Shown: positions 37,804 through 64,000 of the stretch, piece after piece
Position numbering within the stretch: the first letter of the stretch is position 1
Layout: every line of letters begins with the position of its first letter
Assembly (NCBI GenBank): GCA_965248535.1
Contig: CBDFJR010000002.1
Span: 480,001-544,000 of the forward strand
Length of the DNA stretch: 64,000 nt
Origin: Phormidesmis sp.
Lineage (GTDB): Bacteria; Cyanobacteriota; Cyanobacteriia; Leptolyngbyales; Leptolyngbyaceae
Direction of reading: 5' to 3'
Program-made: the position numbers and the translations under genes
Notes under the pieces: generated by a model
Databases searched by the model: none
What the model was told of the DNA's origin: nothing
The model's input: only the letters and a program-made list of their open reading frames with translations

Positions 37804-38388
37804 ATGGCAAACCTGCAATCTATTCACGCCGTTGGTGAATCGCTGCGGAACTACTTGCGGAATACCTATCCGTCTAGTGCTTTCGCGGGTCTGCCAACCT
37901 TTGATATTCAACTAATCTCTAGCGGTGAGTTAGCCACCCGCGACGAGCCAACTAATACGCTGTCGCTGTTTCTGCATCGCGTCACGGTAAATGAGCACCT
38001 GCGAAGCAGCAGACTCAACCATTCAACTCAAATCGGCATCCCTTTGTCGGTCGATTTGCACTATCTGATGACCGTTTGGGCAGACAGCGCCCTAGCAGAA
38101 CACCTCGTTTTAGCCTGGGCAATGCGGCAGTTTCACACCCGCTCAATTTTAGATGCGTCTTCGCTCTCGCCCGAAGCTGGATGGCAGCCAGACGACACGA
38201 TTCAACTCATTCCCGTCGATTTGAGCAATGAGGATATTATGCGAATCTGGGATCGGTTAAAGCCGTCTTATCGCCTGAGTGTGGCTTATGTAGCCAGAGT
38301 TGTGAGCATTGAGGCTGATAGCCAAGAGGCAGGTCGCCCCGTGGTGGCAACGCGGTTTAATGTGGACGATCGAGAGGCGCTGCCATGA
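37804..38388 (+). CDS. eCIS cap/terminator protein (DUF4255 / Pvc16 / Afp16-like)
   Basis: LSLFLHRV..N.HLR, LSVDLHYL.T, IW......YR.SV.Y.ARVV.I. Confidence 0.85.
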   Translation: MANLQSIHAVGESLRNYLRNTYPSSAFAGLPTFDIQLISSGELATRDEPTNTLSLFLHRVTVNEHLRSSRLNHSTQIGIPLSVDLHYLMTVWADSALAEHLVLAWAMRQFHTRSILDASSLSPEAGWQPDDTIQLIPVDLSNEDIMRIWDRLKPSYRLSVAYVARVVSIEADSQEAGRPVVATRFNVDDREALP

Positions 38389-39179
38389 CGCTGGTTCAGG
38401 TCGATCGCCGAGTGTTAGGAGCCATTCAACTCGTCAATGCCACGACGGGAGCGCCGATTCAACGACGGTTGCAGGTGAGCGGGCGCAATGTGCACTTAGT
38501 GTGGAATCGTGGCGGTTACGCGGTGATTTATGCCGCAGACGGGCTGCAAGCCTATAGCGAAAGCTTTCTAGCACCTGCAAGTCCGGCTTTGGCAACGGTA
38601 TCTATTCAAGTGAGCGTCATCGACCCCGAAGGACAGTATCTGCCTCGACAGGTGACGATCAAACTGCCTCGTGATTCTGATTCCACTAAAGCCACTGCTG
38701 TCGATTCTTTGTTTCAGCCGATTCGGGTTGCGGTGTATCGATCGCCTGCGGCTCAAGTGGCATCGGGTTGGGCGGTGATTCGGGCGACGGTGCTTGATAA
38801 AACCACCAGCCAGCGCCTACCGTGGGCATTGATTCGCGTCGTGCAATCCTCTCCGGCTAAGGTAACGCTTAGTTTAGCCGATTGGCGCGGTGAAGCATTA
38901 ATTAGCGTTTCTGGAATCCCAGTTACAACGCCTGGTGCAGGGGTGGGTGCCGTCTTAGTGAATGAGATTGATGTCACGTTAGAGATTGTTTTTAATCCAC
39001 TTTTAATAACCATTCCGATCGCGTCTGATCTATCGACGTTAACCGATCCCAATGCTGGCTATGTGCCCGATCCTGATGATTTAGACACTCGGCGGGCCAG
39101 CCTACGATCGGGCAGTCTTCCCTACAAACTCGCCTCTGGTCGCGATCGTGCAGACACGTTAGCCGTCACCTTGGCTTAA
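38385..39179 (+). CDS. eCIS-associated beta-rich protein (possible cap adaptor)
   Basis: ATGA coupling to the cap gene; carboxypeptidase-regulatory-like ADWRGEA segment. Confidence 0.55.
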   Translation: MTLVQVDRRVLGAIQLVNATTGAPIQRRLQVSGRNVHLVWNRGGYAVIYAADGLQAYSESFLAPASPALATVSIQVSVIDPEGQYLPRQVTIKLPRDSDSTKATAVDSLFQPIRVAVYRSPAAQVASGWAVIRATVLDKTTSQRLPWALIRVVQSSPAKVTLSLADWRGEALISVSGIPVTTPGAGVGAVLVNEIDVTLEIVFNPLLITIPIASDLSTLTDPNAGYVPDPDDLDTRRASLRSGSLPYKLASGRDRADTLAVTLA

Positions 39180-39206
39180 TTCCTCGTTTTTATAAGGAGA
39201 AACCCA

Positions 39207-40925
39207 GTGCCCGAATATTTAGCTCCCGGTGTGTATGTCGAAGAAACCAGCTTCCGCGCAAATTCCATCTCAGGCGCAGGAACCAGCACCACCGCGTTTG
39301 TAGGAACCACCCTCAAAGGCCCTGTTGGCGGCGTTCCAGAATTGATCACCAGCTTTGGTGAGTTTGAGCGCCTCTATGGTGGGTTAGACGACCTCAACGG
39401 CAAGACCAACTACATCGCCCATGCGGTGCGCGTTTTCTTCGACAACGGCGGCTCTCGTCTCTATGTCTCTCGCGTCGTCTCTGGCAGCGCAACGGCGGCT
39501 CAATCGGCTGATCTGCTCACTAGCGCGACGGATGAAGCGCGATTTGTGGCGCGGTTTAAGGGCGATGGTGGCAATGGCGAAGTCTTGCTCTATCAAAAAG
39601 AAACTCCTGTCAGCGTGGGCACGATCGCCAACGCCCCGTTAGGCAGTATTTTGCGAGTCAAAGCGGCTGACAGCAAATATTATCTCAAACAGGCCAATCT
39701 CAAAGCGGCAGGCGATTGGAAAGACTCGGCAGATGCTGCTTTGACCGATGCCATTTTAGGGACAAATCCCGCTCCTCAGCTAGATCTACTGACGCTGATG
39801 GTGGTGACTCGCGATCTCAGCGGCAGTGAAACCAGCTATGAAGACTTGGGATTTGATGCCAAACATCCCCGTTGGGTGGGCAGCGTTTTGTCTTCTCAGC
39901 CCAATCGTCGCACTGATGCGTTAACTAATCTCTTTGCAATTACCGTTACGCCCACTACTGTGACAGGTCTTGCGTTGCGCGAAGGATTATTTGCAGCGTC
40001 TATTCAACCGCAAAAAGTTTCTCTATCGGGTGGAACTAGTGGAGGCGATCCCGGCGTTGACGATTATAAAGCGGCGCTGAAACAGCTTGAATCATTAGAA
40101 GATATCTCGATCGTGGCCGCTCCGGGTCACTCAGCGTTAGCCGAGACGTTATTTCTAGGCATTCAGCAAGAGCTATTGACCTTTGTGTCTCGGCGACGGG
40201 CTTATCAAATTGCAGTGCTGGATACGCCACCCAATCAAAGCCTGAATGATGCGCGAACGGTGCGGAGTCGCCTCGATTCTTCCTATGCCGCTCTCTATTA
40301 TCCGTGGGTGGTCGTTGCCAATCCGCAAGCCCGATCGGGCAGTGCCGCCCTTGCCGAATTAACGCTGCCCCCGTCTGGTTTTCTGTGCGGCATCTATGGG
40401 CGCAATGACGTAGAGCGCGGTGTTTATAAAGCGCCTGCGAATGAGATCGTGCGCGGTGCAATTCGATTTGAGACGCAGATTAACTTTGCTCAACAAGAAG
40501 TTCTCAATCCTTTAGGGATTAACTGTCTGCGGTTTTTCCCTGGTCGGGGCTATCGCGTTTGGGGTGCCCGCACGATCAGTTCTGACTCGAACTGGAAGTA
40601 TGTCAACATCCGCCGTTACTTTAATTATCTAGAATCGTCGATCGATCGCAGCACTCAAAATCTGGTGTTTGAGCCGAATGGCGAACGCCTCTGGGCAAAT
40701 GTCCGCGATACGATTTCGGCGTTTCTCTATAGCGAATGGGTGTCAGGCGCACTGCTCGGCAGCAGCTATCAAGAAGCCTATTTTGTGCGATGCGATCGCA
40801 GCACCATGACGCAGCAAGATCTCGACGAAGGCAGGCTGATTTGTCTGATCGGGGTAGCAGCGATTAAACCTGCTGAATTTGTGATCTTCCGCATTGGTCA
40901 AAAAACGGCTGATTCTCGCGGTTAA
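39207..40925 (+). CDS. Contractile tail sheath protein
   Basis: MPEYLAPGVYVEE, YAALYYPW, PPSG, KAPANE, LNPLGINCLR, WGART, KPAEFVIFRI; AAGGAG RBS with GTG start. Confidence 0.95.
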   Translation: MPEYLAPGVYVEETSFRANSISGAGTSTTAFVGTTLKGPVGGVPELITSFGEFERLYGGLDDLNGKTNYIAHAVRVFFDNGGSRLYVSRVVSGSATAAQSADLLTSATDEARFVARFKGDGGNGEVLLYQKETPVSVGTIANAPLGSILRVKAADSKYYLKQANLKAAGDWKDSADAALTDAILGTNPAPQLDLLTLMVVTRDLSGSETSYEDLGFDAKHPRWVGSVLSSQPNRRTDALTNLFAITVTPTTVTGLALREGLFAASIQPQKVSLSGGTSGGDPGVDDYKAALKQLESLEDISIVAAPGHSALAETLFLGIQQELLTFVSRRRAYQIAVLDTPPNQSLNDARTVRSRLDSSYAALYYPWVVVANPQARSGSAALAELTLPPSGFLCGIYGRNDVERGVYKAPANEIVRGAIRFETQINFAQQEVLNPLGINCLRFFPGRGYRVWGARTISSDSNWKYVNIRRYFNYLESSIDRSTQNLVFEPNGERLWANVRDTISAFLYSEWVSGALLGSSYQEAYFVRCDRSTMTQQDLDEGRLICLIGVAAIKPAEFVIFRIGQKTADSRG

Positions 40926-40975
40926 CGTTTGCTTTTTGAATGGACTGACCCTCGACATCCTTTGGAGAATTTCTT

Positions 40976-41452
40976 ATGTCCGATCGTACTTTTCCCTATA
41001 GTGCCTTTAACTTTTTGGTCAAATGGGATAACAGCGTTGACCCAACGACTGCACTGGGCGGCTTTTCAGACGTTTCGGGCATCAACACCGAGATGACGAT
41101 GGCCGAATATCGCAACGGCAATGAACTCGAAAATCACGTCCGCAAAGTGCCGGGATTGCACAAAGTGGGTGACGTGACACTCAAGCGCGGCATCATCAAA
41201 TCAACCGACTTTTGGAACTGGATTAACGCAACTCGTCGCACGGGAGTGAATGCAAAACGCGAAGTGATGATCACACTCCAAGATGAATCAGGAAAACCCG
41301 TGCAGTCATGGAAATTACGCGGTGTAGTGCCGATGAAATATACGGGGCCAACGCTGACGGGCAAAGGCGGTGGCGACGTGGCAATGGAAGAATTAGTGCT
41401 TTCAGCAGAAGGCTTGATTTTGGTCGATAGCACCGGGAATGACATCGGATGA
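40976..41452 (+). CDS. Tail tube protein (T4 gp19-like)
   Basis: PY..FNF.V, GGFSDVSG, EYRNG, KVPG, VTLKRG, VA.EELVL. Confidence 0.93.
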   Translation: MSDRTFPYSAFNFLVKWDNSVDPTTALGGFSDVSGINTEMTMAEYRNGNELENHVRKVPGLHKVGDVTLKRGIIKSTDFWNWINATRRTGVNAKREVMITLQDESGKPVQSWKLRGVVPMKYTGPTLTGKGGGDVAMEELVLSAEGLILVDSTGNDIG

Positions 41453-42981
41453 GCGGCTTAGTGTTTGAAACGGCACCGCCGATCGTGGCGAGTGCCCCCA
41501 ACCGATCGGATATCGCCTGCTTTATTGGCTTTGTGAGCAGGCGCAAAACGGCGTTGCCGTCTCAGCTAGAACGCTGGCTGCAAGAACAAGGCTGGAACTC
41601 GCCAGGAATCGGAGATCTACTCGATTTGCCTGTGCCGATCGAGGCATGGAATCAGTTTGATAACTTGTTCGCTTGGGATCAGCGACCTTTAGATCAGCCT
41701 AATCAAATCGGCAGCACTTATTTAGGCGCAGCGGTGCGATCGTTCTTTGCCCAAGGCGGGCGCAAATGCTATGTGATTAGAGTCGGTGATCCCTGGCGCT
41801 TGACGGCTCCAAAATCAGAGCGGTTGGAGCAGATTAAAAAGCTGATTCCCGGCTATCCAACGGGTTTTGAGGGTTCCGCCGTCGATCGGGCAAGCTGGCA
41901 CGGAGTCGGCCATCTGTTTGGCTTATCCGATGTATCGTTCCTGTGTTTTCCCGATCTAGCTGATGCCGTGGCAATGGATCGGCAGCGAATCGATCCGCCG
42001 AAATTGCCTGCTCCACCCCTAGAACAGTTTGTAGAATGCTCACAGCCAGTCCCTCAAATTGCCGATCGCTCGTCCCGATTATTTCAAGCTCCTCGCTGTG
42101 ATGAAGACGGCTATAAGGCTTGGACAACGGCTCTACAGCTTGTCGCAGATCTGCTAATTCGTCAACAGCGAGAGGTGCAGTTAGTTGCCTCGGTGCCGTT
42201 GCCGGAGCGCGATCGTGATTTACTCGCCTTCTTCACGCAGCCCACACCGGGATTTGAGCCGCCGCTAGCGATCGCCGTTCCTAATCAAGGATTGGCGAGT
42301 GCGTTTGTGCAGCTTGCTTACCCGTGGGTGCAAACGCCCGGATCGGCAAATTTGCCAGAGCAGTTAGAAAGCCCCGATGCGGTGTTAGCAGGCGTTCTAG
42401 CTCGAAACGCCTTGACTCGCGGCAGTTTTCGCAGTGCGGCTAATTTGCATCTCGCCGATGTGCAGCAGGTTTATCCGATTCTCACCCGCGATCGCCTCCT
42501 GCATTCTCAGCCCGACAGCGCGACGCGATTGACGCAGCACACTTTGCCCCAGCGCATTTCTATTTTTGGCACGACTCCGATCGGGCTGCGCTTGCTCTCC
42601 GATGTCACCACGAGTTTGGATGAGAGTTATCGTCCGGCTAGCGTTAATCGCTTGGTGGCGGCGATCGTGCGGGCCGCTAGGCGATTGGGCGAAGAGGTCG
42701 TGTTTGAAGCATCGGGGGAGCGTCTGTGGATGCGTCTGCGCGATAGCCTTACCACGCTGATGAGTGGCTTGCTTAAAGCCGGAGCGCTGCAAGATGCGGG
42801 GGCAACGGCCTTTGCGGTGCGCTGCGATCGCGACACCATGACCCAGCAAGATCTCGATCAAGGTCGCGTCATTGCTCATATAGAATTTGTGGCCGCCGCC
42901 CCGATCGACCAAATCACGATCGTGCTTGCCCTCAACACAGGCGGACAGGTGGCGCTGATTCCTGCTCAGGAGGCTGCATGA
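41449..42981 (+). CDS. Second, divergent tail sheath protein
   Basis: R.DIA.FIG, AVRSFFAQGG..CYVIR, YPW, VFE....LW, F.VRCD..T. Confidence 0.8.
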   Translation: MSGLVFETAPPIVASAPNRSDIACFIGFVSRRKTALPSQLERWLQEQGWNSPGIGDLLDLPVPIEAWNQFDNLFAWDQRPLDQPNQIGSTYLGAAVRSFFAQGGRKCYVIRVGDPWRLTAPKSERLEQIKKLIPGYPTGFEGSAVDRASWHGVGHLFGLSDVSFLCFPDLADAVAMDRQRIDPPKLPAPPLEQFVECSQPVPQIADRSSRLFQAPRCDEDGYKAWTTALQLVADLLIRQQREVQLVASVPLPERDRDLLAFFTQPTPGFEPPLAIAVPNQGLASAFVQLAYPWVQTPGSANLPEQLESPDAVLAGVLARNALTRGSFRSAANLHLADVQQVYPILTRDRLLHSQPDSATRLTQHTLPQRISIFGTTPIGLRLLSDVTTSLDESYRPASVNRLVAAIVRAARRLGEEVVFEASGERLWMRLRDSLTTLMSGLLKAGALQDAGATAFAVRCDRDTMTQQDLDQGRVIAHIEFVAAAPIDQITIVLALNTGGQVALIPAQEAA

Positions 42982-43463
42982 GCAATTCAGCCTATCCGCT
43001 ACAGGTGTTTCGCTTTCAGGTCACGTTTCAAAAAGATCCGTTGCCCAACAGTGGCGATACGGCTCCGGTGCAGATGAGCGCGGCGTTTTCAGAATGCACG
43101 GGGCTAGAAGCGACGATGGAACCGAAAGTAATCAAAGAAGGCGGACGCAACTATGGCGCAGCACAGCGTGCGGGACAGGTGACCTTTGCGACGGTGATTT
43201 TAAAGCGTGGCATGACCCGCGATCGTGACTTATGGAACTGGTTTACCCTGGTGACTCAGGGAGCCTATGCCCATCGCCGCACGGCCACAATCACGATGTT
43301 TGACACGAGCGGCGCGGGCGTTTTGTCGTGGCAGTTAGAGAAGGCGATGCCCGTCAAGTTTAAAGCCGCCGACCTGAATGCCAAAGGCACCGAGATCGGC
43401 GTTGAAGAACTGCATTTTGTCCATGAAGGATTAAGTTTGATCAGAGGAGAAGGAACGCTATGA
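42978..43463 (+). CDS. Second tail tube protein (Afp5-like)
   Basis: FRFQV, FSECTGLE, EGG.N, ILKRG, PVKF.A.DLNA. Confidence 0.9.
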   Translation: MSNSAYPLQVFRFQVTFQKDPLPNSGDTAPVQMSAAFSECTGLEATMEPKVIKEGGRNYGAAQRAGQVTFATVILKRGMTRDRDLWNWFTLVTQGAYAHRRTATITMFDTSGAGVLSWQLEKAMPVKFKAADLNAKGTEIGVEELHFVHEGLSLIRGEGTL

Positions 43464-44467
43464 GTGAACCTGTGACTCGCGCTACCTTCACGCCGCAAAC
43501 GGGAAGTAAAACGCCAATCGAAGTGCATTTTAACCCGGTTTCGCTTCAGATTTCGATTAGTAATTCTCTAGAAGATAAAGGCAAAGGGAAAGACAAAAAA
43601 CAATACATTTCTAAAACGGCGGCAACGCTGGCGATGGATTTAATTTTCGACACAACTCACAAGGGCAGTGACGTGCGGATAGAAACTCAAAAGATCGCCC
43701 GATTTATGGAGCCAGGAAAAGAACCCGGCGATCAAAAAATTCCGACGATCGTGCTGTTTGAGTGGGGCACGTTTAAGTTTCAAGGCTTGATCCAATCCTA
43801 TCGAGAGACGATCGATTTCTTTTCGTCAGATGGGGTGCCGCTGCGGGCCAGCATTAGCCTCACGATGTCGCGTCAAGAAGAAGTGTTTGAGCCGAGTCCC
43901 CAGCCGCCTCGTGATTCCTCAGTTCAGGTGTCGGCGGGCATTAGCGCTAGTGCTGCCGCTTCCCTAGGGGGAGCACCCGATGCAGGACGGGCGATCGCGT
44001 CGGCAAATGCCCAAGACAGCCTGCGGTTTTCGAGCGGTGCCTTTACGTTGGATGCTTCGATTACGCTGAGTCCTGCGATCGCGTTTGCGACAGGCGGCGC
44101 TGGCATTGGCGGCGGCATTGGCATCGGTGGCGGCATTGGTGTTAGCGGAGATATTGGAATTAGTGGCGGAGTCGGGATTAGCGGCGGGGTTGGCATTAGT
44201 ACCGGAGCCGGAATCAGCATTGGCGGAAGTGCTTCCGCAGGAATCTCTGCCAGTGAAGGAGCCTTTGCAGGATTGCGTCTCTCTAGTGATGTGCGTCCTG
44301 TTGCACAAATTGATACTAATCGATTCATTCAATCGAGTGAATCTGTAGGTTTTGCCACTAGTCGTAATGCTAGTTTTCAAGTCGGTGGACAGGCAGAAAT
44401 TGAAGGGTCTGCCAGCTTAAGCACCAACGTCCGATCGCGCTCCACGATTCAGTTTGAGGAGGATTAA
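43460..44467 (+). CDS. CIS tube initiator (Afp7-like) with Gly/Ile/Ala-rich extension
   Basis: V.FNP.SL, L.FDTT, P..VLF.WG.F.F.G, F..DG.PLRA. Confidence 0.8.
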   Translation: MSEPVTRATFTPQTGSKTPIEVHFNPVSLQISISNSLEDKGKGKDKKQYISKTAATLAMDLIFDTTHKGSDVRIETQKIARFMEPGKEPGDQKIPTIVLFEWGTFKFQGLIQSYRETIDFFSSDGVPLRASISLTMSRQEEVFEPSPQPPRDSSVQVSAGISASAAASLGGAPDAGRAIASANAQDSLRFSSGAFTLDASITLSPAIAFATGGAGIGGGIGIGGGIGVSGDIGISGGVGISGGVGISTGAGISIGGSASAGISASEGAFAGLRLSSDVRPVAQIDTNRFIQSSESVGFATSRNASFQVGGQAEIEGSASLSTNVRSRSTIQFEED

Positions 44468-44469
44468 TT

Positions 44470-44631
44470 ATGCCCGTTGTCTTTGATCAAGTGATTGGCG
44501 AAGTCGTTCCCCCAGAGCCGTCTCGCCAAGATGAGCCAGAAAATTCTCCCTCAGTTGCACCTAGCGATCGTAGGCTGCAAACCACCTTAAGGCAATTAGA
44601 AAAACGCCGTGCGAGATTAAAAGCCGATTAG
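44470..44631 (+). CDS. 53-aa eCIS small protein (Afp6/Pvc6-like candidate), absent from the ORF track
   Basis: GGAGG RBS; MPVVFDQVIGEVVP...RQLEKRRARLKAD; lies between the tube initiator and spike hub genes. Confidence 0.6.
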   Translation: MPVVFDQVIGEVVPPEPSRQDEPENSPSVAPSDRRLQTTLRQLEKRRARLKAD

Positions 44632-44668
44632 TTTCAAGTCTCTAGACATTTTGCCCTCTTTTTTAGCC

Positions 44669-45760
44669 ATGCCCGAAACTAAACTCAGTCCCCTTACCGT
44701 CTATAGCGCCCAGCCCACCGTGCGGATCAATGCTCAAGAATATCCCAAAGTGAGCGAATCGATTTTGGCGATGGAAATGGTCGAGCAAGACGGCGGGATG
44801 TCAGCCCTAGAACTTCGACTTAGCAATGTGGTTAGCGATCCCAATGGCGGGGCAAATTTGGCGTTTGAAGACAACCAAATCTTAAAGTTAGGAGCCACGA
44901 TCGCGCTCTATGCCGGGGATGCAACCGCTCCGCAAGAAATCTTTCAGGGGGCGATCACCGGGTTAGAAATCGACTTTCCAGAGAGCGGCCCACCCGACCT
45001 CACGATTTTGGCTGAAGACGTTTTTCAACGGGCGCGGATGGCGCGGCAGAGCAAAGTTCACACCGATGTCTCGATCGCCGATCTAGCCCGACAGCTTGCT
45101 AGTCAACTCAGCCTGACTCCGGTGATTACGGGGCTGACTCAACCGATCGGCACTCAAGTGCAACTCAACGAAAGTGATTTAGCCTTTTTGCGGCGATTGC
45201 TCGATCGCTACGATGGCGATCTGCAAGTGGTCGGCAAAGAGCTACACGTTTCGCCAAACGCTGAGGTGCGGCGCGGCAAACTAGAACTGGCGATCGATAG
45301 CCAATTACGGCGAGCAAAAGTTTTGGTTGATCTGGCGCACCAAGTCACCGAAGTCACCGTCAGCGGCTGGAATCCGGCTCAGGGCAGGCGGGTTAGCGCT
45401 AGGAGTCAAGGCGCACATCTGCGATCGGGCGCTGGTACTCGCGGTTCGCAAATTTTGCAGAAAACCTTAGGCGATCGCTCTCACCATTTATCTCACTTGG
45501 CAGTCACCACCGATGCCGAAGCGCGGGCGGTTGCCGATGCTGCGTTTGACGATCGGGCCCGGCAGTTTGTCTGTGTTGAGGGCACGGCTGACGGCAATCC
45601 GGCGCTGCGAGTCGGGACGCATTTAACCCTCAAAGGATTGGGCGATCGCTTCAGCAATACCTACTATGTGACTCGTGCTTGTCATCGCTTTAGCCTGGGC
45701 GCAGAGGGTGGCTATGTCACCGATTTTGAAGCCGAATCTGCCTTTTGGGGAGGGAACTAA
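44669..45760 (+). CDS. Baseplate hub (phage late control D / gp27-like, N-terminal VgrG half)
   Basis: IFQG.ITGLE, Q.NESDLAFLRRL, V.VSGW, GNPALRVG, FS..YYV....H. Confidence 0.85.
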   Translation: MPETKLSPLTVYSAQPTVRINAQEYPKVSESILAMEMVEQDGGMSALELRLSNVVSDPNGGANLAFEDNQILKLGATIALYAGDATAPQEIFQGAITGLEIDFPESGPPDLTILAEDVFQRARMARQSKVHTDVSIADLARQLASQLSLTPVITGLTQPIGTQVQLNESDLAFLRRLLDRYDGDLQVVGKELHVSPNAEVRRGKLELAIDSQLRRAKVLVDLAHQVTEVTVSGWNPAQGRRVSARSQGAHLRSGAGTRGSQILQKTLGDRSHHLSHLAVTTDAEARAVADAAFDDRARQFVCVEGTADGNPALRVGTHLTLKGLGDRFSNTYYVTRACHRFSLGAEGGYVTDFEAESAFWGGN

Positions 45761-46449
45761 TGCAGCCGATCTTTGAGCATCCAACGACAGCATTACACGG
45801 CAGCTATCTAGGAGAAGTAGTGTCGGTGAACGATCCTGACCATCTCTCTAGGGTGCAGGTGCGGCTGTTTAACTTCGATGGCGCAGGGCAACAAGATGCG
45901 CCGATTTGGGCAAGAGTGGCGGTGCCAGTGGCAGGAGCGAATTCTGGAGCGTTTCTGCTGCCCGATGTGGGAGACGAAGTGCTGATCACGTTTGTGAATG
46001 GGGATGCGCGGCTGCCCATGGTGATCGGGTCGCTGTGGAATGGCAACGCACCCGCACCTGAAACCCTAGGCGGAAGTGGTGAAACCGTCGATCGCTGGAC
46101 TCTAGTGGGAAAAGCCCAAACGCGGATCGCGATCGTCGAAGAATCTCCGGGCAATGCCACCATTTCTCTCACGACTCCGGGCGGGGTCAGCGGCATCCTC
46201 ACCCAAACCGCCGGAGGAAAAATCGAGTTTGAAGCCGCAGGCACGACAGTCACAGTAGACACCAGTGGGGTCACGGTGCAGAGTGCCGGACGGGTCAGCG
46301 TCAGCGCTAGCCAAGTCGAAGTCACGGCGGGACAGGTGACGGTGAACGCGGCGATTTCGACCTTTTCGGGGGTCGTCAAATGTGACACTCTGATTGCCAC
46401 CACCGTGGTCTCGACCACCTACACACCCGGAGCCGGAAATATATGGTAG
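45760..46449 (+). CDS. Spike protein (gpV / gp5 OB-fold plus beta-helix)
   Basis: V.DP..L.RV.V, WARVA...AG..SG...LPDVGDEVL..F..GD..P.VIGSLWNG; TAATG coupling. Confidence 0.88.
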   Translation: MQPIFEHPTTALHGSYLGEVVSVNDPDHLSRVQVRLFNFDGAGQQDAPIWARVAVPVAGANSGAFLLPDVGDEVLITFVNGDARLPMVIGSLWNGNAPAPETLGGSGETVDRWTLVGKAQTRIAIVEESPGNATISLTTPGGVSGILTQTAGGKIEFEAAGTTVTVDTSGVTVQSAGRVSVSASQVEVTAGQVTVNAAISTFSGVVKCDTLIATTVVSTTYTPGAGNIW

Positions 46450-48005
46450 ACCCTGCTGTGATTCTGCAAGCGGTGGGCGTGAGTCAGGTTGCCGACCAGC
46501 CCAATTTGCCTAAATCCTACGATCTGCGACCCACGATTCTTAAACGAACGGAGCAAGATTTTATTGGCTCTGTTTTAGATGAATTGCGGAGTGGAAAAGG
46601 AATTCAAGCGTTAACGGGAGTGATTGATTCTCATCAGTCTGGTGATACCTTAACGTTTCTTCAGCCAGTGCATCGCACGTTCTATCTCGTGATTTTAGAA
46701 ATTGCTTGTGATCCGTTTAATCAGCCCTATTTGCAGCCGCGTCTTGATCCTCGCAAAATCGAGAGTGCGGGGCTAGTGGTGCGTCGAGTCGCTGCCAATG
46801 GCAAACTCGAAGGCTGGCGCAAACAGGGGCACTCAGTGCGGGGCTGGATTCCCTTTGACACTGAGAATGCTGAGAAGCTTGATCCTGATCCCGATCGCCG
46901 CCCCCCGATCGCGTCGGGATTGCCAGACCTCGATCGCTTGTTGGCTCCCCATGCGCCGCTTTCTGAAAGTGTTGCGCCGCTCTATGTGGCTCCGCCCGAT
47001 GTCTGTCAGGCGGTGGGACGCACGATTTTGTATGGCGTGATTCCGGTGACTAGCTCAGAGTTTAGCGAAGCGCCCCCCGTCACGCCCACGCCGGAGGATG
47101 CTGACACGTTAAATCAGCTAAATGCCGCTATTAAAGATATGCTGCCGATTTATCTGCGATCGGGCGGCGATCGGCGAGAACCCCAAGGGGGTAGGGTGTT
47201 GACGGCTGATCTGGCGGATGATCTGAGCTTGCGCGGCTTTTTAGCGACGCTGCACCAGCTAAGATTTCAGTTTCGGCTGTTTGATGCTGATCTGGCGAGT
47301 GTTGCTTTATTCAACGCATTCAATCAAGCGATCGTGGCCCCTGACACGCCCAATGCTCAACCGTTGGGCGATCTGTTGTCTTTAGCGAGTCGCATTCTCA
47401 TCGATCGAGAAGCCGGATTAGAGGTGACGCTGCCTCAAAATTGGCCGACCTTGAGCGATTCCCAAAATCAGACTCTTTTAGATTTGTCGCGGGCGGCGTT
47501 GATGAGTCATTTATCGGCTTTGACGGCGGGTGAAAGTCGATTTGAGGCGTTAGAGTCCCGTTATCAAGTGCGGGCGTTTGTGCGGCTCAAATCTATTGAT
47601 GCTTGTGTTCATTCTCCGTTGTGGAGTGACTATAGTGCTGAGTTTACGATCGCGCCCTGGTATGAATCTGGCAGTCAGCCTCCAGTGAAAGTGGTGTTGC
47701 CTGACATTCTGAATCCTAAAGCGTTGGCAAGTCTTAAACCTAGCGTTGCTTTTTCGGTTCCACCTAAATTATTTAACTTTCTCAACAAGAACGATATCGC
47801 CAAATCTGTTTTGTCTGGGGATGTTAAAGATGGTGATGATGGCGGCATTGCCTGGATTTGTTCGTTTAATATCCCGATCATTACACTTTGTGCTTACTTA
47901 GTGCTGAATATTTTCTTACAACTCTTCAATATTATCTTTTGGTGGATTTTGATCGTAAAGATTTGTCTTCCTGTTCCTAAAAAGCTATTTCCCAAGCCGA
48001 AGTAG
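46443..48005 (+). CDS. Uncharacterised eCIS protein with a hydrophobic C-terminal membrane segment
   Basis: C-terminal WICSFNIPIITLCAYLVLNIFLQLFNIIFWWILIVKICLP followed by basic tail; no N-terminal signal. Confidence 0.7.
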   Translation: MVDPAVILQAVGVSQVADQPNLPKSYDLRPTILKRTEQDFIGSVLDELRSGKGIQALTGVIDSHQSGDTLTFLQPVHRTFYLVILEIACDPFNQPYLQPRLDPRKIESAGLVVRRVAANGKLEGWRKQGHSVRGWIPFDTENAEKLDPDPDRRPPIASGLPDLDRLLAPHAPLSESVAPLYVAPPDVCQAVGRTILYGVIPVTSSEFSEAPPVTPTPEDADTLNQLNAAIKDMLPIYLRSGGDRREPQGGRVLTADLADDLSLRGFLATLHQLRFQFRLFDADLASVALFNAFNQAIVAPDTPNAQPLGDLLSLASRILIDREAGLEVTLPQNWPTLSDSQNQTLLDLSRAALMSHLSALTAGESRFEALESRYQVRAFVRLKSIDACVHSPLWSDYSAEFTIAPWYESGSQPPVKVVLPDILNPKALASLKPSVAFSVPPKLFNFLNKNDIAKSVLSGDVKDGDDGGIAWICSFNIPIITLCAYLVLNIFLQLFNIIFWWILIVKICLPVPKKLFPKPK

Positions 48006-48077
48006 TGTTGTAGAGATCGATTTCTGAGTGTTCTTTTTTTAGTATCGCGACCTGAAATCTCAATCTAACGTGTCCTC

Positions 48078-53681: not shown

Positions 53682-53855
53682 ATGCCAACCTTTGAGCCGC
53701 AAAAACCGATCGTTACCGCTACCCCGATCGTGGTCGTCGATGCCAGCCTCGCGCCGGGTCGCTATCGCTTTCAGCTAGTGGTCGAAGACGATGCCGGAAA
53801 CCAAAGTCAGCCGACCGAGCAAATTGTTGTCATCAATCCCCCCAGGATTCGCTAA
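53682..53855 (+). CDS. 57-aa Ig-like module protein
   Basis: GRYRFQLVVEDDAGNQSQP, paralogous to the upstream gene; TAATG coupling to the next gene. Confidence 0.6.
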   Translation: MPTFEPQKPIVTATPIVVVDASLAPGRYRFQLVVEDDAGNQSQPTEQIVVINPPRIR

Positions 53856-54724: not shown

Positions 54725-54778
54725 ATCTTCTATTTTGTCTGTTTTAAAAGACAGTGACCCGCTACCCCCTTACGCCTT

Positions 54779-60885: not shown

Positions 60886-60913
60886 ACCCTAGATTCCAAA
60901 ACTACTCACTGCT

Positions 60914-62302
60914 ATGAAACGCCATGTTCACACGGTTCGTCTGCGATCGCATGATGAAGCCCTGATTCATCAAGGGGCTGTGTTGTTAGAAGATGCGCTG
61001 CACACGGCATCGTTGCCCGAAAGTGGGCGGCTGTTGGTGGTGCGATCGCTGAATGTTGGCAAGATTCACAGTCAGCACAGTTCGGCGACGTTGGCTCTTG
61101 TGGTAGAGCAACAATTGGCGCAGATTGGCATGATGGCAGTTCATGCTGAAGATCCGGTGGCAAAGGATGCGATCGCGGTCTATTTTCGAGATTCAATCGA
61201 GCCTTATCTTTGTCTGGCGGTGAGGTTAGCAAATCACCGCAGCACCGAGGAATGGTTTTGGCGGTTAGCGGTGGTGAACTGGCAGCCTCATTTGTCTAGA
61301 GAAGAAGGATTGCGACGGGTGCTTTATGGGGTAATGCAGACGGCGATCGGGGTCGCTGCGATCGTGCCTTTAATGCAGGAGTTATTGGCTAAAAGTTCAA
61401 TCATGCCAATGCTTTTGGCGCTGACTGAGAAAGACGGATCTGCTTTATTGCAGGTCTGCGGATGGATACAATCAGAGACTCCAATTGGATTAATAAATCC
61501 ATTATCAATTTCATTCTTATCCAGAGATTGGATTGATTTACTTCAGCATTGGGTTGCGGTTTGGGGTGTTGAAGATGCCCGATCGCTTTGGTTGACTACT
61601 ATTGTTCTACTTGCAGAACAACCTGCGTTTAGGATCGATCCGCAGTTGATTGCCCGATCGCAGCAGATCATTCAACAAATTAGCGATTCTAGAAAGTTGT
61701 ATTTGTCTGATCAGTCAGTGTTAATGGAGAATCCAGCTACGATTATAAGAAGTTTTCCCTTAGTGTTAAACGAATCATACTTATCCAGCAATAGTTTATC
61801 ACTTCAGAATTCTTCTTTAGATCCTCATCGATTTATAGATACTCCTCAATTAACGGTATTTGCCGGATTATTTTTCCTGTTACCTTTAATGACTTACTTA
61901 AAAATCGAATCCTTTTTAGAATCGAATCCTCATTTAATTGAGTTTGATTTACCTGGAATGTTGCTCTATACGATCGCTCAACGATTAGATATTCCTGAAA
62001 CCGATCCCGTTTGGGAGGCATTGCCTGAACCTTCAAACGATTTCATAGACTCCACTTTGCTTCGCTCTTGGCTCAACTCAATGCGGCGCTGGTGCCGTCT
62101 CAATGCCGAAATGGGACTACACAATTTAGTGACTCGATCGGGGCAGATTTTAATCACCCGCACCCACCTTGATATCTGGTTTAACCCGCAGCAAGCCGAC
62201 CTGCGGATTCGTCGCATCGGACTAGATCTCAATCCGGGTTGGGTGCCCTGGTTTGGACGAGTCGTTGCCTTTCACTACACAGGAGCCGGGTATGGAAATT
62301 GA
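60914..62302 (+). CDS. CIS tape-measure-like protein (Afp14-like)
   Basis: Position directly before the ATPase; AGLFFLL and C-terminal GLDLNPGWVPWFGRVV.FHY. Confidence 0.55.
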   Translation: MKRHVHTVRLRSHDEALIHQGAVLLEDALHTASLPESGRLLVVRSLNVGKIHSQHSSATLALVVEQQLAQIGMMAVHAEDPVAKDAIAVYFRDSIEPYLCLAVRLANHRSTEEWFWRLAVVNWQPHLSREEGLRRVLYGVMQTAIGVAAIVPLMQELLAKSSIMPMLLALTEKDGSALLQVCGWIQSETPIGLINPLSISFLSRDWIDLLQHWVAVWGVEDARSLWLTTIVLLAEQPAFRIDPQLIARSQQIIQQISDSRKLYLSDQSVLMENPATIIRSFPLVLNESYLSSNSLSLQNSSLDPHRFIDTPQLTVFAGLFFLLPLMTYLKIESFLESNPHLIEFDLPGMLLYTIAQRLDIPETDPVWEALPEPSNDFIDSTLLRSWLNSMRRWCRLNAEMGLHNLVTRSGQILITRTHLDIWFNPQQADLRIRRIGLDLNPGWVPWFGRVVAFHYTGAGYGN

Positions 62303-64000
62303 GAACTTAGGGAATCGTCCGATCGTGACTCTTCACACCGTTGCGTTTGCCGCGATCGCCGCCACGCTAGACCCGTCGCTTCTCGTCAATCCAACGGTTT
62401 CTGAGTTAGAACACTTACGTCACTATCAAGCGATTGTGACGGCTAATCATGCTAATTGGATCGATGCCCTCAAAAACTATCTTCGCCACCCTGCCGTTTG
62501 CGATTATTCCCTGTTGCAATTAGCAAAACCACTGTCCTTGTCAATCATTGAAGTATTAGCAATTTCACTATCAATAGCGGTTGAGCAAGACACGATCGCA
62601 GGTCGAATTTTAGCTTATCTACAAGCTCCTCTAGGTGGTTCGCGTCCTACTTTAGGGTTACTCTCTTTAGCATTCTCGCCGCTATCAGGCAGCGTTTCTG
62701 TGATCGATCGCTTCATGATGGGCAACGCGATCGCCAGCGGATTGCTGCAACTCCTCAACGAATCGGCACCGCTCCCAGAGCAGTCTATCAAAGTGCCTCT
62801 GCACATCGGTTTGGCGCTGCGAGGCCACGATCGCTCCCTTCCAGACCTGACGATCGGGCTAGATGATTACGCTGTTCCGTTAGCCGCTTCGATGCTGATT
62901 GAGGCGCAGCGCTGGGCTACCAGTCTTCAGTCGGGCACTCAGCGAGTTTTAGTCTTACGCACCGGGTCACAGATCGAAGGAAAATCAGTCGCCCACACGA
63001 TCGCTACAATTCTTCAGCGTCGCCCCCTGTTCATTGCGACGAATCAACCCGATCAAACCGTCAATCTCGCCCCGTGGCTGTTGCTCAGACAGTTGCTCCC
63101 GGTTTTTTGCTATGACCTCGCCCCCGGAGAACGCAAGAGTTTGCCGCCCATGCCGTTTTATCGCGGCCCTATTCTCGTCGTCTGCGGCATTGATGGCAGC
63201 GTCGAAGCCTTGGGCGAAACCGTGCTCAACTGGGTGGTTCCCGTCCCCAATGTTGAAGAACGACAGCAGCTTTGGCACCTGGCGATCGCTGACGAAACTC
63301 TAGCAGCAGAGTTAGCGCAACAACATCGCCACAGCAGCGGCCGCATTGCCCAACTAGGTCGATTAACGCAGCACCATCAAATTCTCCAACAGCAAGACAA
63401 ACCCCAACGAGAACACGTTATCGCCGCCGCCTGGACAAGCGAAGGAATCGGACTCGGTGCCCTAGCTCAACCTCTAACCGATGCTATTCCCGATGATGCG
63501 CTGGTGATGACTCCGGCTCTGCGCGACGAACTTCAGATGCTCTTTTTGCGCTGTCGTCACCGCGATCGCCTCGTCACCGGACTCGGACTCTCAGCCACCG
63601 TGCGCTATCATCCCGGTGTGCGATCGCTGTTTGTGGGCCCATCGGGCACGGGCAAAACTCTGGCGGCAGGCTGGTTAGCCACAAAATTAGGAATGCCGCT
63701 CTATCGCGTCGATCTCGCCTCGATCACCAGCAAATATATTGGTGAAACCGAAAAGAATTTATCACAGTTACTCTCGCGAGCCGAACAAGCCGAAGTCGTC
63801 TTATTATTTGATGAAGCCGACTCACTGTTTGGCAAACGCACTGATGTACAGCAAGCCAACGATCGCTTCGCCAATGCTCAAACTAACTATCTGCTCCAGC
63901 GCATTGAGTCGTTTGACGGCATCACTCTGCTCACCAGCAACAGCCGCAGTCGCTTTGATTCTGCCTTTTCTCGCCGACTGGATATGATCATTGAGTTTCC
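62292..64000 (+). CDS. eCIS AAA+ ATPase (Afp15-like), runs off the window end; absent from the ORF track
   Basis: ATG 62292 in frame with Walker A GPSGTGKT (63636), [37 protein letters not shown]. Confidence 0.9.

Follow-up and report, generated by a model that had tools for sequence, protein, structure and literature searches.

A headless contractile injection system locus with subtype IIb-like gene content in a cyanobacterium, with a predicted tail-anchored protein encoded beside the spike

Running past the end of the 64,000-nt stretch of Phormidesmis sp. DNA that we analysed (the window) is a complete, intact and headless injection-machine locus of the Afp/PVC ('eCIS') superfamily, with 24 ORFs in ~30.4 kb. 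As judged from sequence, it has the gene content given for dbeCIS subtype IIb in the part of Chen et al. 2019 available to us (PMC6899500); the gene set is complete, and the catalogued subtype is recognisable by a conserved membrane-anchored protein, here g11, encoded beside the spike. We consider it about 75% probable that the whole is best explained as a IIb-matching contractile injection system (CIS) locus, with the machine that its parts suggest and a g11 tether.

Extent and gene content of the locus

Twenty-one CIS genes lie on the plus strand at positions 37804-64000 of the window (ORF list, Pfam, NCBIfam), and many of their junctions overlap by 1-16 nt (ORF coordinates), in agreement with the first-pass annotation, which had described about 20 co-oriented, often overlapping genes. 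The locus continues ~4.2 kb beyond the window end, where g21, g22 and g23 follow g20, with a fasciclin gene as well as dnaN and dnaA further downstream. Eleven matches to the phycobilisome family PF00502 mark the genome as cyanobacterial; the host is related to filamentous Leptolyngbyaceae, and its CIS locus has its closest counterpart in Phormidesmis priestleyi BC1401. A second, IId-like CIS locus in the same genome is new here.

Table 1. Coordinates and principal matches of the CIS and cargo-candidate genes. Positions are those of the window, except for g21-g23, which lie outside it.
Gene	Assignment	Coordinates	Strand	Basis
g1	cap / tail terminator (Afp16/Pvc16-like)	37804..38388	+	Pfam Pvc16_N E 5e-38
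g2	264-aa lineage-specific protein	38385..39179	+	4-nt overlap with cap gene g1
g3	main sheath	39207..40925	+	Phage_sheath_1 E 1e-20, sheath_1C E 5e-13
g4	inner tube	40976..41452	+	Phage_T4_gp19 E 8e-35; TIGR02241 103.9 bits, above cut-off
g5	divergent second sheath paralogue	41449..42981	+	phmmer against solved sheaths E 8e-15
g6	second tube protein	42978..43463	+	Phage_T4_gp19 E 3e-32
g7	Afp7-like tube initiator	43460..44467	+	CIS_tube E 1e-20, residues 13-140
g8	53-aa protein, named by Afp6/Cis6 position only	44470..44631	+	iterated HMM
g9	baseplate hub (gp27/gpD-like half of VgrG)	44651..45760	+	Phage_GPD E 7e-8
g10	spike (gp5/gpV-like half of VgrG)	45745..46449	+	Phage_base_V E 1.5e-21
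g11	520-aa tail-anchored protein: soluble domain and C-terminal hydrophobic hairpin	46443..48005	+	
g12	gp25-like wedge initiator (Afp9)	48078..48467	+	GPW_gp25 E 9e-23
g13	single Afp11 / baseplate J	48469..50658	+	Baseplate_J E 9e-16; TIGR02243 265 bits, above cut-off
g14	Afp12/Cis12-like wedge, Tail_P2_I domain	50659..53190	+	Tail_P2_I E 1.5e-7
g15	Ig/PKD-like mini-protein, Pro-rich tail	53285..53677	+	PKD_4 E 6.7e-5, below its cut-off
g15b	second Ig-like mini-ORF, 57 aa	53682..53855	+	translation against g15 by eye
g16	shortest of three paralogous fibre/baseplate-anchor proteins	53855..54724	+	CIS13_fam N-terminus E 1e-8, far below cut-off
g17	second fibre-like paralogue, 629 aa	54779..56668	+	CIS13_fam N-terminus E 2e-6
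g18	third and longest fibre-like paralogue, 1405 aa	56668..60885	+	residues 191-408 common with g17
g19	conserved two-domain helical protein, upstream of ATPase	60914..62302	+	
g20	Afp15-like AAA+ ATPase	62253..64000, window-cut; full gene to 64103, 616 aa	+	AAA E 1e-24
g21	DUF4157 cargo candidate, 720 aa	L003:2314-4476, outside window		eCIS_core E 1.9e-27
g22	metzincin-like cargo candidate, 424 aa	L003:4679-5953, outside window		Reprolysin/Matrixin-type matches, HEVGH
g23	97-aa ORF	L003:5950-6243, outside window		

Cap, main sheath, two tubes, initiator, separate hub and spike, gp25, baseplate and ATPase, all listed in the earlier annotation, were identified by Pfam and NCBIfam. The second sheath of that list, g5, matched sheath_1C in Pfam at only E 0.006 and was recognised by phmmer against solved sheaths. 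By analogy with Cis1b/Cis5 (PMC12237407, available in part), g6 is likely a tube-initiator layer, and the C-terminal half of g7 is Gly-rich on inspection. The hub and spike genes cover positions 2-346 and 372-544, respectively, of the 547 in NF033848 VgrG_rel, and g14 reached 66 bits with TIGR02242 (above cut-off) and 144 bits with CIS12_fam (below its 860-bit cut-off). Full-length g20 matched AAA at E 1.8e-25; its start codon may be downstream of 62253, given that alignments with relatives begin at residues 17-72.

The fibre-like genes are true paralogues, as the first-pass annotation supposed: g17 matches g18 in BLASTP (E 3e-11), and the g16 and g17 families align in hhalign with 93.9% probability (E 1.6e-7, 220 columns). 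Searches of Pfam, NCBIfam and PHROG matched g18 to no family and revealed no recognisable receptor-binding domain in g16-g18. Hydrophobic stretches are absent from g16 and g17, and g18 has one, borderline and internal. The Ig mini-proteins noted earlier are also real, as two ORFs. The first, g15, had a tblastn match in 36 of 45 related loci, and a scan for the motif F.L.V.D..G likewise found small ORFs in the g14-g16 gap in 36/45, none of them in Myxococcota rows; g15b, read by eye, is a putative paralogue of the N-terminal unit of g15.

For g2 there was no Pfam, NCBIfam, PHROG or PDB match, and one of 35 orthologues gave a weak CarboxypepD_reg match (E 0.0028). A homologous 52-63-aa core of g8 lies between g7 and g9 in 45/45 loci (iterated HMM). 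Its conserved ends read MPIVFDEV... and ...ERxARLxAD, and in some loci the called ORF extends to as many as 100 aa owing to an upstream start. The g19 family comprises 3021 representative clusters at E<=1e-3, and its one Pfam match among 66 was spurious. Against the fold libraries used, the AF2 model of g19 (pLDDT 91.0, pTM 0.88) gave no clear match (Z at most 4.6; lowest Foldseek E 0.53); this confidently predicted structure without a clear match is new here. In 5/5 extended loci g19 adjoins g18 and g20.

Both cargo candidates, g21 and g22, begin with a leader, G-M-P-L-F/Y-L-Q ... PVQR, which is new here and whose only two occurrences in six frames of the 5-Mb genome are these two N-termini; the second CIS locus lacks it. 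A looser form occurs at the N-termini of seven ORFs downstream of three of five related loci, and tblastn links some of these to the DUF4157 part of g21. DUF4157 ORFs were found in 4/5 extended loci. In the five extended relatives tblastn at E<=1e-4 showed no conservation of g22, which is a candidate from its position and the common leader only. Behind its leader, g21 has a single hydrophobic segment, at residues 191-211, and a C-terminal domain that varies.

That the contractile-tail genes are of phage ancestry would fit a prophage tail module or an R-type tailocin, a reading to which we give almost no weight. A scan of ORFs in the 37 kb before and the 17 kb after the locus found no capsid, terminase, portal or integrase family, and the window has no tRNA; Pvc16_N, the AAA+ ATPase and the DUF4157/eCIS_core cargo are present, the lineage-specific genes have no PHROG match, and the same headless arrangement recurs in 45/45 related loci. 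The earlier assignment to Afp/PVC-type CIS rather than prophage, which capsid, terminase or portal genes downstream would have contradicted, is thus upheld.

Subtype assignment and distribution

In the accessible part of Chen et al. 2019 (PMC6899500), IIb has a split afp8, no afp10/PAAR, afp6 present and a single afp11, with divergent afp12/13 and two or three subtype-specific unknown genes. Here, where the subtype call is by gene content, the spike is split over two ORFs (g9 hub, g10 spike; Pfam, NCBIfam), a single Afp11 accompanies Afp12-like and Afp13-like genes (NCBIfam), the small conserved ORF g8 occupies the place of Afp6, and the PAAR motif (PF05488) was found nowhere in the 99.76%-complete genome, nor inside the related loci in 5/5 relatives' genomes. 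The supplement of the same paper, as far as available, lists Myxococcus xanthus DK1622 and M. fulvus HW-1 as IIb, and three of the syntenic relatives are Myxococcus loci. It also places Nitrospira defluvii in IIc, yet other Nitrospira species have the present arrangement, and therefore genus names do not settle subtype.

In the 45 related loci with complete flanks, which come from at least seven phyla, tblastn found g2-g7, g9-g14, g16 and g17 in all, g1 in 44 and g18 in 43, always collinear; g18, g19 and g20 were present in 5/5 extended loci. The proposal that the gene set is atypical was therefore not borne out, since its features are those of the published IIb description (as available in part) and the g1-g18 order, kept in 45/45 loci, is not peculiar to this genome. 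Nor is the subtype new, being catalogued as IIb in that source, but "uncharacterised" still applies, in that our literature search found no paper with an experimental description of any IIb system. In all, the earlier interpretation stands for an Afp/PVC-type, non-prophage system and falls for an atypical gene set and a novel subtype; the Anabaena tCIS that it cites is only distantly related (see below).

Relatives of g11 numbered 462 at E<=1e-3 and were found in 314 genomes of other groups and a few cyanobacteria, but in 0/400 other sampled cyanobacterial species. A quick sheath tree requires at least two origins for the cyanobacterial rows, and GC is ~54% in the locus against 50.4% in the genome. 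The locus was probably acquired horizontally by a Phormidesmis-like cyanobacterium. Its relatives belong mostly to non-photosynthetic phyla, and their hosts are mostly unicellular.

The membrane-tailed protein g11 and a possible mode of action

The membrane-tailed protein of the first-pass annotation proved to be g11, with one strong hydrophobic stretch, residues 468-515, and none N-terminal; its gene overlaps spike gene g10 by 7 nt. It is a member of a conserved family, new here, found throughout the lineage and always in the same synteny; among 120 listed relatives none had a Pfam domain, save one 706-aa probable fusion. In 117 sequences the hairpin is nearly invariant (W471, C473, F475, P478, I480, A484, L488, F499, W501, I507, C508, P510 and P512 are invariant). 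Such conservation goes far beyond the needs of a simple anchor, which counts against the tether proposed below and argues for a specific protein-protein or pore-forming function. Across 61 sequences the spike ends in YTPGAGNIW with little or no variation. For the AF2 model of g11 (pLDDT 85.8, pTM 0.80) the structure libraries searched gave no clear fold match; the best rows (Z 6.5) are in the noise range, and those to a T6SS VgrG-bound cargo/adaptor domain (9jg8_C, Z 6.5; 9jdh_A, Z 6.2) serve as a lead only.

We infer the mode of action from homologous parts. Assembly would start with a baseplate of hub g9, spike g10, plug-like g8, gp25 g12 and wedge g13/g14, with the three paralogous anchor/fibre proteins g16-g18. 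Initiators g7 and g6 would nucleate tube (g4) and sheath (g3, with minor sheath g5), ended by cap g1, perhaps with g2. The ATPase g20 may help to load cargo, for which g21 and g22 are candidates, and the contracting sheath would push tube, spike and cargo across a membrane. With its predicted cytoplasmic domain and membrane hairpin, g11, always encoded in this PAAR-less subtype and apparently translationally coupled to the spike gene, may anchor the particle, by its spike/baseplate end, on the inner side of a producer membrane, a role by analogy to which we assign about even odds. The machine would then act from inside the cell, as do the haloarchaeal T6SS-like CIS, the Streptomyces CIS with CisA and the Anabaena tCIS, instead of being released as a free particle. 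The tether is suggested by the C-terminal-only hydrophobic stretch, the overlap with the spike gene and the lineage-wide presence of g11, and also by the membrane-protein precedent and the intracellular action of the two nearest solved systems (see below).

The three fibre-like genes count against the tether and would fit a released, target-binding particle. In such a classical extracellular CIS, a less likely alternative, lysis-released particles would bind targets through g16-g18; in this reading g11 would sit on the spike in place of PAAR, which is absent, with its hairpin buried, and on firing would enter the target membrane as tip or translocon. The paralogues do lie downstream of a Tail_P2_I wedge gene, and in the available part of the fibre catalogue (PMC12923769) a Tail_P2_I baseplate may bear as many as four fibres, with multi-fibre loci enriched in Myxococcota and Pseudomonadota. 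The near-invariance of both hairpin and spike C-terminus is as expected for mutually packing parts, and the weak VgrG-bound-domain rows, within noise, lead the same way. Against this, g16-g18 have no recognisable receptor-binding domain, no lysis cassette was seen in the flanking regions scanned, g11-spike binding is putative, and both characterised lineage-II subtypes act inside the cell, according to the available parts of PMC10066040 and PMC11566945.

Comparison with characterised systems

Gene-for-gene orthology to an experimentally characterised CIS was not found, and the first-pass annotation fares well on this point: g2, g11 and g19 had no match among solved structures, including Streptomyces (8bky, 9gtp), Anabaena (7b5h), AlgoCIS, AFP and PVC entries. 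Nearest among solved systems are two intracellular ones, the cytoplasmic CIS of Streptomyces and the T6SS-like CIS of haloarchaea; the Anabaena tCIS that had been proposed for comparison is distant. Thus, g3 matched the sheath of Streptomyces CIS (8bky) at E 7e-101, that of Halogeometricum (9ezm) at E 7.5e-91 and Anabaena All3325 at E 2.7e-45, and g13 matched Streptomyces Cis11 (9gtp) at E 3.7e-39 but Anabaena All3317 at only E 3.8e-4.

Orthology to the thylakoid-anchored tCIS, for which the chances are very slight, would fit a cyanobacterial host, a membrane-anchoring element encoded in the cluster and the weak NCBIfam CIS12 and CIS13 family matches. The latter are far under cut-offs (CIS12_fam 144 against 860 bits, CIS13_fam 35 against 370 bits), and the relatives of the locus are mostly in non-photosynthetic phyla. 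Anabaena tCIS has Cis8 and Cis10, unlike the split spike without PAAR here, and its anchor is a C-terminal Cis13 helix (PMC8894136), whereas g16-g18 have no C-terminal hydrophobic helix. The sheath and Afp11 scores are also far weaker against tCIS than against Streptomyces, and the orthology is effectively refuted.

The sheath and Afp11 scores are closest to Streptomyces CIS, and the leader, hydrophobic segment and variable C-terminus of g21 resemble Sco4256-4258 (PMC10066040, in its available part). With a host related to filamentous Leptolyngbyaceae, these could suggest a Streptomyces-like cytoplasmic CIS, whose free particles g11 would recruit under stress to the cytoplasmic membrane, as CisA does, to kill the producer by regulated cell death within a filament. 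We find this unlikely: hosts of the lineage are mostly unicellular, Streptomyces CisA is bitopic with an extracytoplasmic domain whereas g11 is tail-anchored (PMC12237407, available in part), and Streptomyces CIS has no fibres and a fused spike, against fibre-like genes and a split spike here (available parts of PMC10066040 and PMC12237407). It overlaps the g11 tether reading, differing only in firing direction and outcome. For that tether there is precedent in 3/3 studied non-extracellular systems, where a membrane protein encoded in the cluster accompanies the mode of action: Hbor_38620 of the haloarchaeal T6SS-like CIS (PMC11566945), CisA of Streptomyces CIS (PMC12237407, in part) and the Cis13 transmembrane helix of Anabaena tCIS (PMC8894136).

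Gene content and subtype of the locus

The window spans G000:C2:480001-544000 of a host genome of 5.03 Mb in five contigs, which gave 11 phycobilisome-family matches, and the host is therefore a cyanobacterium. From position 37804 to the window end, 21 co-oriented ORFs occupy the + strand, many overlapping by 1-16 nt, and the locus continues past the window with g21 to g23. ORF calls and searches with Pfam and NCBIfam bore out every item in the gene list of the first-pass annotation, which had described a headless contractile tail with two sheaths, two tubes, hub and spike as separate genes and an Afp15-like ATPase. In the C-terminal half of g7, residues ~200-260 form a run of G-G-I/V-G-I-S-type repeats, a part in which Pfam found no LysM domain.

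Genes of the contractile injection locus and their assignments (L003, DNA fetched past the window end)
Gene	Position	Strand	Assignment
g1		+	Pvc16_N cap (Pfam/NCBIfam)
g3		+	Sheath (Pfam/NCBIfam)
g4, g6		+	Two gp19-type tubes (Pfam/NCBIfam)
g5		+	True but divergent second sheath (E 8e-15 vs solved sheaths)
g7	43460-44467	+	CIS_tube initiator, Afp7-like (Pfam/NCBIfam)
g8		+	53-aa ORF at the Afp6 position
g9, g10		+	GPD hub (g9) and separate Phage_base_V spike (g10) (Pfam/NCBIfam)
g12		+	gp25 (Pfam/NCBIfam)
g13		+	Baseplate J, 729 aa (Pfam/NCBIfam)
g14		+	Tail_P2_I/Cis12-like wedge protein (Pfam/NCBIfam)
g20		+	AAA ATPase, full length 616 aa
g21	Beyond the window, after g20		720-aa eCIS_core/DUF4157 protein
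g22	Beyond the window, after g21		424 aa; reprolysin/matrixin-type matches and HEVGH motif
g23	L003:5950-6243 (window-equivalent 67950-68243)		97-aa ORF

All eight eCIS core components, listed in the available text of PMC6899500 as the Afp1/5 tube, Afp2/3/4 sheath, Afp7, Afp8, Afp9, Afp11, Afp15 ATPase and Afp16 cap, lie in this one co-oriented cluster, and Pfam recognises each of them. No capsid, terminase, portal or integrase family was found among the ORFs scanned in the flanks (37 kb upstream, ORFs of at least 100 aa; 17 kb downstream, at least 80 aa), and this absence of head, packaging and integration genes sets the locus apart from a prophage. Upstream are ordinary chromosomal genes (nucleoside hydrolase, FAD oxidoreductase, recO, transporters, glycosyltransferases), and g23 is followed by a fasciclin gene on the opposite strand, two unrelated ORFs and then dnaN and dnaA. 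The latter two (L003:9281-12309, minus strand) lie ~7 kb beyond the locus end, which puts the locus near the likely origin of chromosome replication. In the interval from the locus to dnaN, an ORF of the PD-(D/E)XK/YhgA-like transposase family with a DUF4351 C-terminus (L003:8236-9189) might be the boundary of an acquired island.

The window held no tRNA and its segment 33000-64000 no Rfam family, and promoter and terminator scans gave counts not above those of shuffles (11 vs 11.0 and 17 vs 22.3). PHROGs returned nothing for 11 of the 13 unassigned proteins searched and marginal matches for g14 (to a tail family, E 8e-4) and g15 (E 0.0085). Paralogues of g2, g11 and g15-g19 were not found elsewhere in the genome. 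Judged from sequence, this is a real and complete CIS locus that is probably functional.

Its gene content places the locus in subtype IIb of dbeCIS (Chen et al. 2019). In IIb, as described in the available text of PMC6899500, afp8 is split into gp27-like and gp5-like ORFs, and here positions 2-346 of VgrG_rel fall on g9 and 372-544 on g10, with Phage_GPD and Phage_base_V on separate ORFs. The same text has IIb as the one subtype that lacks afp10/PAAR: at E<=0.01, PAAR (PF05488) matched nowhere in the 99.76%-complete genome, in a search where positive controls did match, and nowhere inside the locus in five of five relatives followed 20 kb further downstream; four of these five genomes lack it altogether, and the fifth has five matches, all outside the locus. 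IIb is also, by that description, the only lineage-II subtype to keep afp6, and a small conserved ORF, likened to Afp6 by its position, lies between the Afp7-like and hub genes in all 45 related loci that have both flanks. The remaining traits given there are a single afp11, divergent afp12 and afp13, and two or three more subtype-specific genes without known domains; the present locus has one Baseplate_J gene, g14 matches Tail_P2_I and TIGR02242 and, below threshold, CIS12_fam, and g16 and g17 have sub-threshold N-terminal matches to CIS13_fam. Myxococcus xanthus DK1622 and M. fulvus HW-1 are listed as IIb in the part of PMC6899500 available, and three Myxococcus loci are among the syntenic relatives. 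The IIb loci of dbeCIS have the same gene content as ours, with no difference in it, and are likewise spread over many phyla. The proposal of an atypical gene set and possibly a new subtype thus falls, since the gene content is that of the published IIb description (PMC6899500). Our literature search, which covered few subscription-journal papers and partly abstracts, found no experimentally characterised IIb system, and IIb and IIc are the two eCIS subtypes for which we found no studied representative. The locus adds a new member to a subtype that has been catalogued but not studied, and that is rare in the phylum of this host.

Relatives and horizontal acquisition

The nearest relative of the locus is that of Phormidesmis priestleyi BC1401, with 81-96% amino-acid identity over g1-g18. 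Among 8000 candidates scored, g11 had 462 relatives at E<=1e-3, all unnamed 'hypothetical' proteins, and the 120 listed showed no Pfam domain, bar one 706-aa probable fusion. An alignment of 21 relatives (A1) led to 314 g11-encoding stretches in the species-level genome collection, the best 80 of which were retained for locus comparison. By record title, these 80 comprise 15 cyanobacteria (Phormidesmis, Leptolyngbyales, Elainellales, Cyanobium, Synechococcales), 4 Nitrospirota, 5 Acidobacteriota, 7 Myxococcota or 'delta', 2 Chloroflexia, 3 Planctomycetota/Verrucomicrobiota and 44 Pseudomonadota (Thauera, Accumulibacter, Variovorax, Methylococcaceae and others).

Synteny was counted by tblastn of the window proteins in the 45 loci with both 10-kb flanks, leaving out the other 35, which are cut by a contig end. 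All 45 are collinear on one strand and contain g2-g7, g9-g14, g16 and g17, while g1 was found in 44, g18 in 43 and g15 in 36. For g8, whose product is too short for this search, tblastn gave 4 of 45, whereas iterating an HMM on the ORFs that lie between g7 and g9 recovered a homologue in 45 of 45, with the shared ends MPIVFDEV... and ...ERxARLxAD. In the five relatives extended downstream, g18, g19 and the ATPase were present in every case and DUF4157 ORFs in four.

The rarity of g11, the sheath tree and base composition point to horizontal acquisition of the locus. No g11 relative at E<=1e-10 occurs in 400 other cyanobacterial species genomes sampled evenly across the phylum, and mean G+C is ~54% in the locus vs 50.4% in the genome. 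In a quick maximum-likelihood sheath tree of 58 rows (in 57 of the 80 loci the sheath ORF was full-length, with at least 480 aa and at least 40% identity, and the others were dropped; support is SH-aLRT only and phylum labels are from record titles), the window grouped at support 100 with P. priestleyi, Leptolyngbyaceae UHCC 1019 and a Leptolyngbyales MAG. The Cyanobium clade lies among Acidobacteriota and Myxococcota, across a fully supported branch, a placement that implies at least two cyanobacterial origins. In the same tree, the sheath from a record titled Comamonas sp. KCTC 72670 (L060) groups, fully supported, with Myxococcus sp. CA023 on a branch that is short (0.12 vs 0.057), reflecting either recent transfer of the locus or a doubtful organism label on the record.

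The genome holds a second CIS locus (G000:C5:2229734-2259487 and C5:2347240-2350712, minus strand). Its first part has a cap gene fused to CarboxypepD_reg, a sheath gene, two tube genes, an AAA ATPase gene and a pair that code for DUF4157 proteins. FHA, WD40 and Ser/Thr-kinase genes are inserted next, and past them lie genes for a tube, a protein of 1065 aa, a CIS_tube protein and a VgrG of 667 aa that is fused; those for gp25, baseplate J and a Cis12-like protein are ~88 kb away on the opposite strand. The sheath matches that of the Streptomyces CIS over its full length (E 2e-122), so that this second locus looks IId-like, and it looks split. We considered g2 as a counterpart of its cap-fused CarboxypepD_reg and rejected this (hhalign probability 0.1%; one of 35 orthologues with a weak Pfam match). 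For the cyanobacterium, the IIb locus would be a weapon or a cell-death device, rare and gained by horizontal transfer, alongside a second CIS locus of another type.

Candidate proteins for membrane coupling, assembly and cargo

The 520-aa product of g11, the membrane-tailed protein of the first-pass annotation, is encoded with a 7-nt overlap with the spike gene. Its only hydrophobic stretch is C-terminal (residues 468-515), preceded by an acidic stretch and followed by a short basic tail, and this hairpin is the most conserved part across 117 aligned relatives, with W471, C473, F475, P478, I480, A484, L488, F499, W501, I507, C508, P510 and P512 invariant. Such extreme conservation suggests that the hairpin does more than anchor. 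At the C-terminus of the g10 spike, YTPGAGNIW shows no or almost no variation in 61 sequences. With the relatives' alignment as input, AlphaFold2 confidently predicted g11 as a globular alpha/beta protein (mean pLDDT 85.8, pTM 0.80) whose hairpin is of lower confidence. Foldseek gave no convincing fold match in the PDB (best E 0.45) or a viral library (best E 0.1), and exhaustive alignment to 48,161 representative chains (VIA wide) returned only generic beta-sandwich rows (best Z 6.5); g2, g11 and g19 also lacked matches at E<=1 among the sequences of solved structures. Two of the top five fold rows for g11 were the N-domain of a Bacteroides T6SS effector bound to VgrG, a lead only at Z <=6.5.

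We favour, with a probability of about one half, a reading in which g11 tethers the spike or baseplate end of the particle to the membrane of the producer. The parts list is that of a complete contractile injector, whose order of assembly and loading of cargo would follow those of its homologues, and g11 would tie its spike or baseplate end to the membrane. If so, this would be a T6SS-like mode without the TssJLM complex. Alternatively, the particle may be a released eCIS with g11 as PAAR substitute or translocon, its hairpin being shot into the target membrane; PAAR is missing, and the lineage-II subtypes so far characterised act within the producer, and we consider this alternative rather unlikely. 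Whether as tether or translocon, g11 would determine the mode of action of the whole IIb lineage (over 300 species-level genomes in at least seven phyla).

Directly before the ATPase gene, g19 encodes a 462-aa protein. Of its representative relatives, 3021 score E<=1e-3 and 624 reach E<=1e-30; in them N- and C-terminal parts are conserved and the linker between them is variable. In 66 relatives the sole Pfam match was one spurious hit. Its model is helical, two-domain and very confident (pLDDT 91.0, pTM 0.88), with no structural neighbour (Foldseek best E 0.53, VIA wide best Z 4.6). One language-model neighbour (0.84) is annotated as a CIS tape measure. We provisionally rejected that role for g19, as PF19268 (CIS_TMP) had no match at E<=10 in the genome or the 66 relatives and the model is globular, not extended.

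The products of g16, g17 and g18 (289, 629 and 1405 aa) have an N-terminal module in common, which weakly resembles the baseplate-binding end of Cis13; the kinship of g16 and g17 is absent by plain BLASTP and was seen only in profile comparison. Pfam, NCBIfam and PHROG recognised no receptor-binding domain in the three. According to the available text of the fibre catalogue PMC12923769, a Tail_P2_I baseplate may hold as many as four fibres, and loci with several fibres are enriched among Myxococcota and Pseudomonadota; these three fibre-like paralogues fit that picture. The Ig/PKD-like mini-ORFs g15 and g15b are a variable module that 36 of the 45 loci have and the Myxococcota rows lack.

The N-termini of g21 and g22 share a leader, ...G-M-P-L-Y/F-L-Q...P-V-Q-R, whose seven-residue pattern turns up only twice in the six-frame translation of the genome, once at each of these N-termini. 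A looser form marks the N-termini of seven ORFs that lie downstream in three of the five extended relatives (Leptolyngbyaceae UHCC 1019, four; Nitrospira, two; Sorangium, one), some of which match the DUF4157 part of g21 by tblastn, and is absent from the second CIS locus of the genome. PVC and Afp cargo carry N-terminal loading signals, and by analogy we infer that the shared leader may be the cargo-loading signal of this lineage. g21 has one hydrophobic segment (residues 191-211). g22 and g23 had no match in the five extended relatives. The g23 ORF overlaps the g22 stop by 4 nt, has a C-x-x-C-H motif near its C-terminus and matches no family; it could act on g22 as inhibitor or immunity partner, or else be a fragment of a gene.

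The locus and its 45 collinear relatives thereby supply concrete candidates for IIb in g11, in g19 with its confident unmatched fold and in the cargo leader, the leads being a conserved tail-anchored protein, two unmatched folds and the leader. Taken jointly, they might be read as a so far undescribed CIS-membrane coupling in which g11 is a new fold replacing PAAR at the spike end (as tether or translocon), with g19 a new-fold assembly factor and G-M-P-L-F-L-Q the loading signal, a combination that we put forward tentatively and hold to be somewhat doubtful as a whole. Since the relatives include genetically tractable Myxococcus, the question of how machine and membrane are linked is directly testable.

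Likeness to solved contractile injection systems

The nearest CHARACTERISED systems by the g3 sheath are those of Streptomyces (8bky, 7e-101) and Halogeometricum borinquense (9ezm, 7.5e-91), with Afp3 (2e-55), Pvc2 (4.5e-50), the Anabaena tCIS sheath (2.7e-45) and AlgoCIS (8e-44) following, and for the Afp11 protein g13 the order is Streptomyces Cis11 (9gtp, 3.7e-39), AlgoCIS (2.2e-8) and Anabaena All3317 (3.8e-4). Because sheath and Afp11 score best against Streptomyces or Halogeometricum, and far worse against tCIS, this is a lineage-II system.

The thylakoid-anchored tCIS of Anabaena sp. PCC 7120 (Ib; 7b5h), which had been invoked for comparison, proved distant. To judge from the available text of PMC8894136, the two share a cyanobacterial host, DUF4157 cargo candidates, a spike plug and fibre-like proteins with a related N-terminal anchor domain, although here the CIS13_fam match is weak (35 and 27 bits for g16 and g17 vs a cut-off of 370). 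In tCIS, however, the spike is fused and comes with a PAAR-like Cis10, Cis11 (1231 aa) forms a cage, Cis19 is present as crown protein, the cap is made of two proteins, and the C-terminal helix of Cis13 is the anchor (PMC8894136), whereas our locus has a split spike, no PAAR, neither a cage-forming Cis11 nor the crown Cis19, and a g13 of 729 aa vs 1231 aa for All3317. Nor do g16 and g17 have any hydrophobic stretch that could correspond to the Cis13 transmembrane helix; g18 has a single borderline internal one (1291-1309 of 1405).

The T6SS-like CIS of H. borinquense (IIa; 9ezm, linked to PMC11566945 via text search) belongs to lineage II like our locus, has the second-best solved sheath and also encodes DUF4157 proteins in its cluster. 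IIa has two afp11 copies and keeps afp10/PAAR (PMC6899500), whereas our locus has one afp11 and no PAAR. [quoted passage not shown]

The S. coelicolor CIS (IId; 8bky, 9gtp), as described in the available text of PMC10066040 and PMC12237407, has the closest solved sheath and Afp11 and, like our locus, two tube paralogues and no classical tape-measure gene. It floats in the cytoplasm, and its firing needs the cluster-encoded membrane protein CisA (PMC10066040, PMC12237407). Both characterised lineage-II subtypes thus act inside the producer cell, and related systems of Chloroflexota and Deinococcota are also cytoplasmic, as far as the available text of PMC12998442 goes. A Streptomyces-like, stress-triggered self-killing device is a variant of the membrane-tether reading, within its share, and one that we regard as improbable: both clusters encode a membrane protein, its firing role being taken from Streptomyces, but CisA is bitopic and encoded at the cluster edge, whereas g11 is tail-anchored and next to the spike, the topologies being compared by description. 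Moreover, in the Streptomyces CIS VgrG is fused, there is a single sheath, Cis16 makes up the cap by itself and fibres are lacking, and our locus, unlike it, has a split spike, a second sheath, g2, g8, three fibre-like paralogues and g19; the single contiguous afp8 and the lack of afp12/afp13-type fibres that define IId are replaced here by the split spike and the three paralogues. The nearest studied subtypes each turned out to have an unexpected mode of action, each dependent on one cluster-encoded membrane protein, and in the tether reading that we favour g11 would be the counterpart of that protein in IIb.
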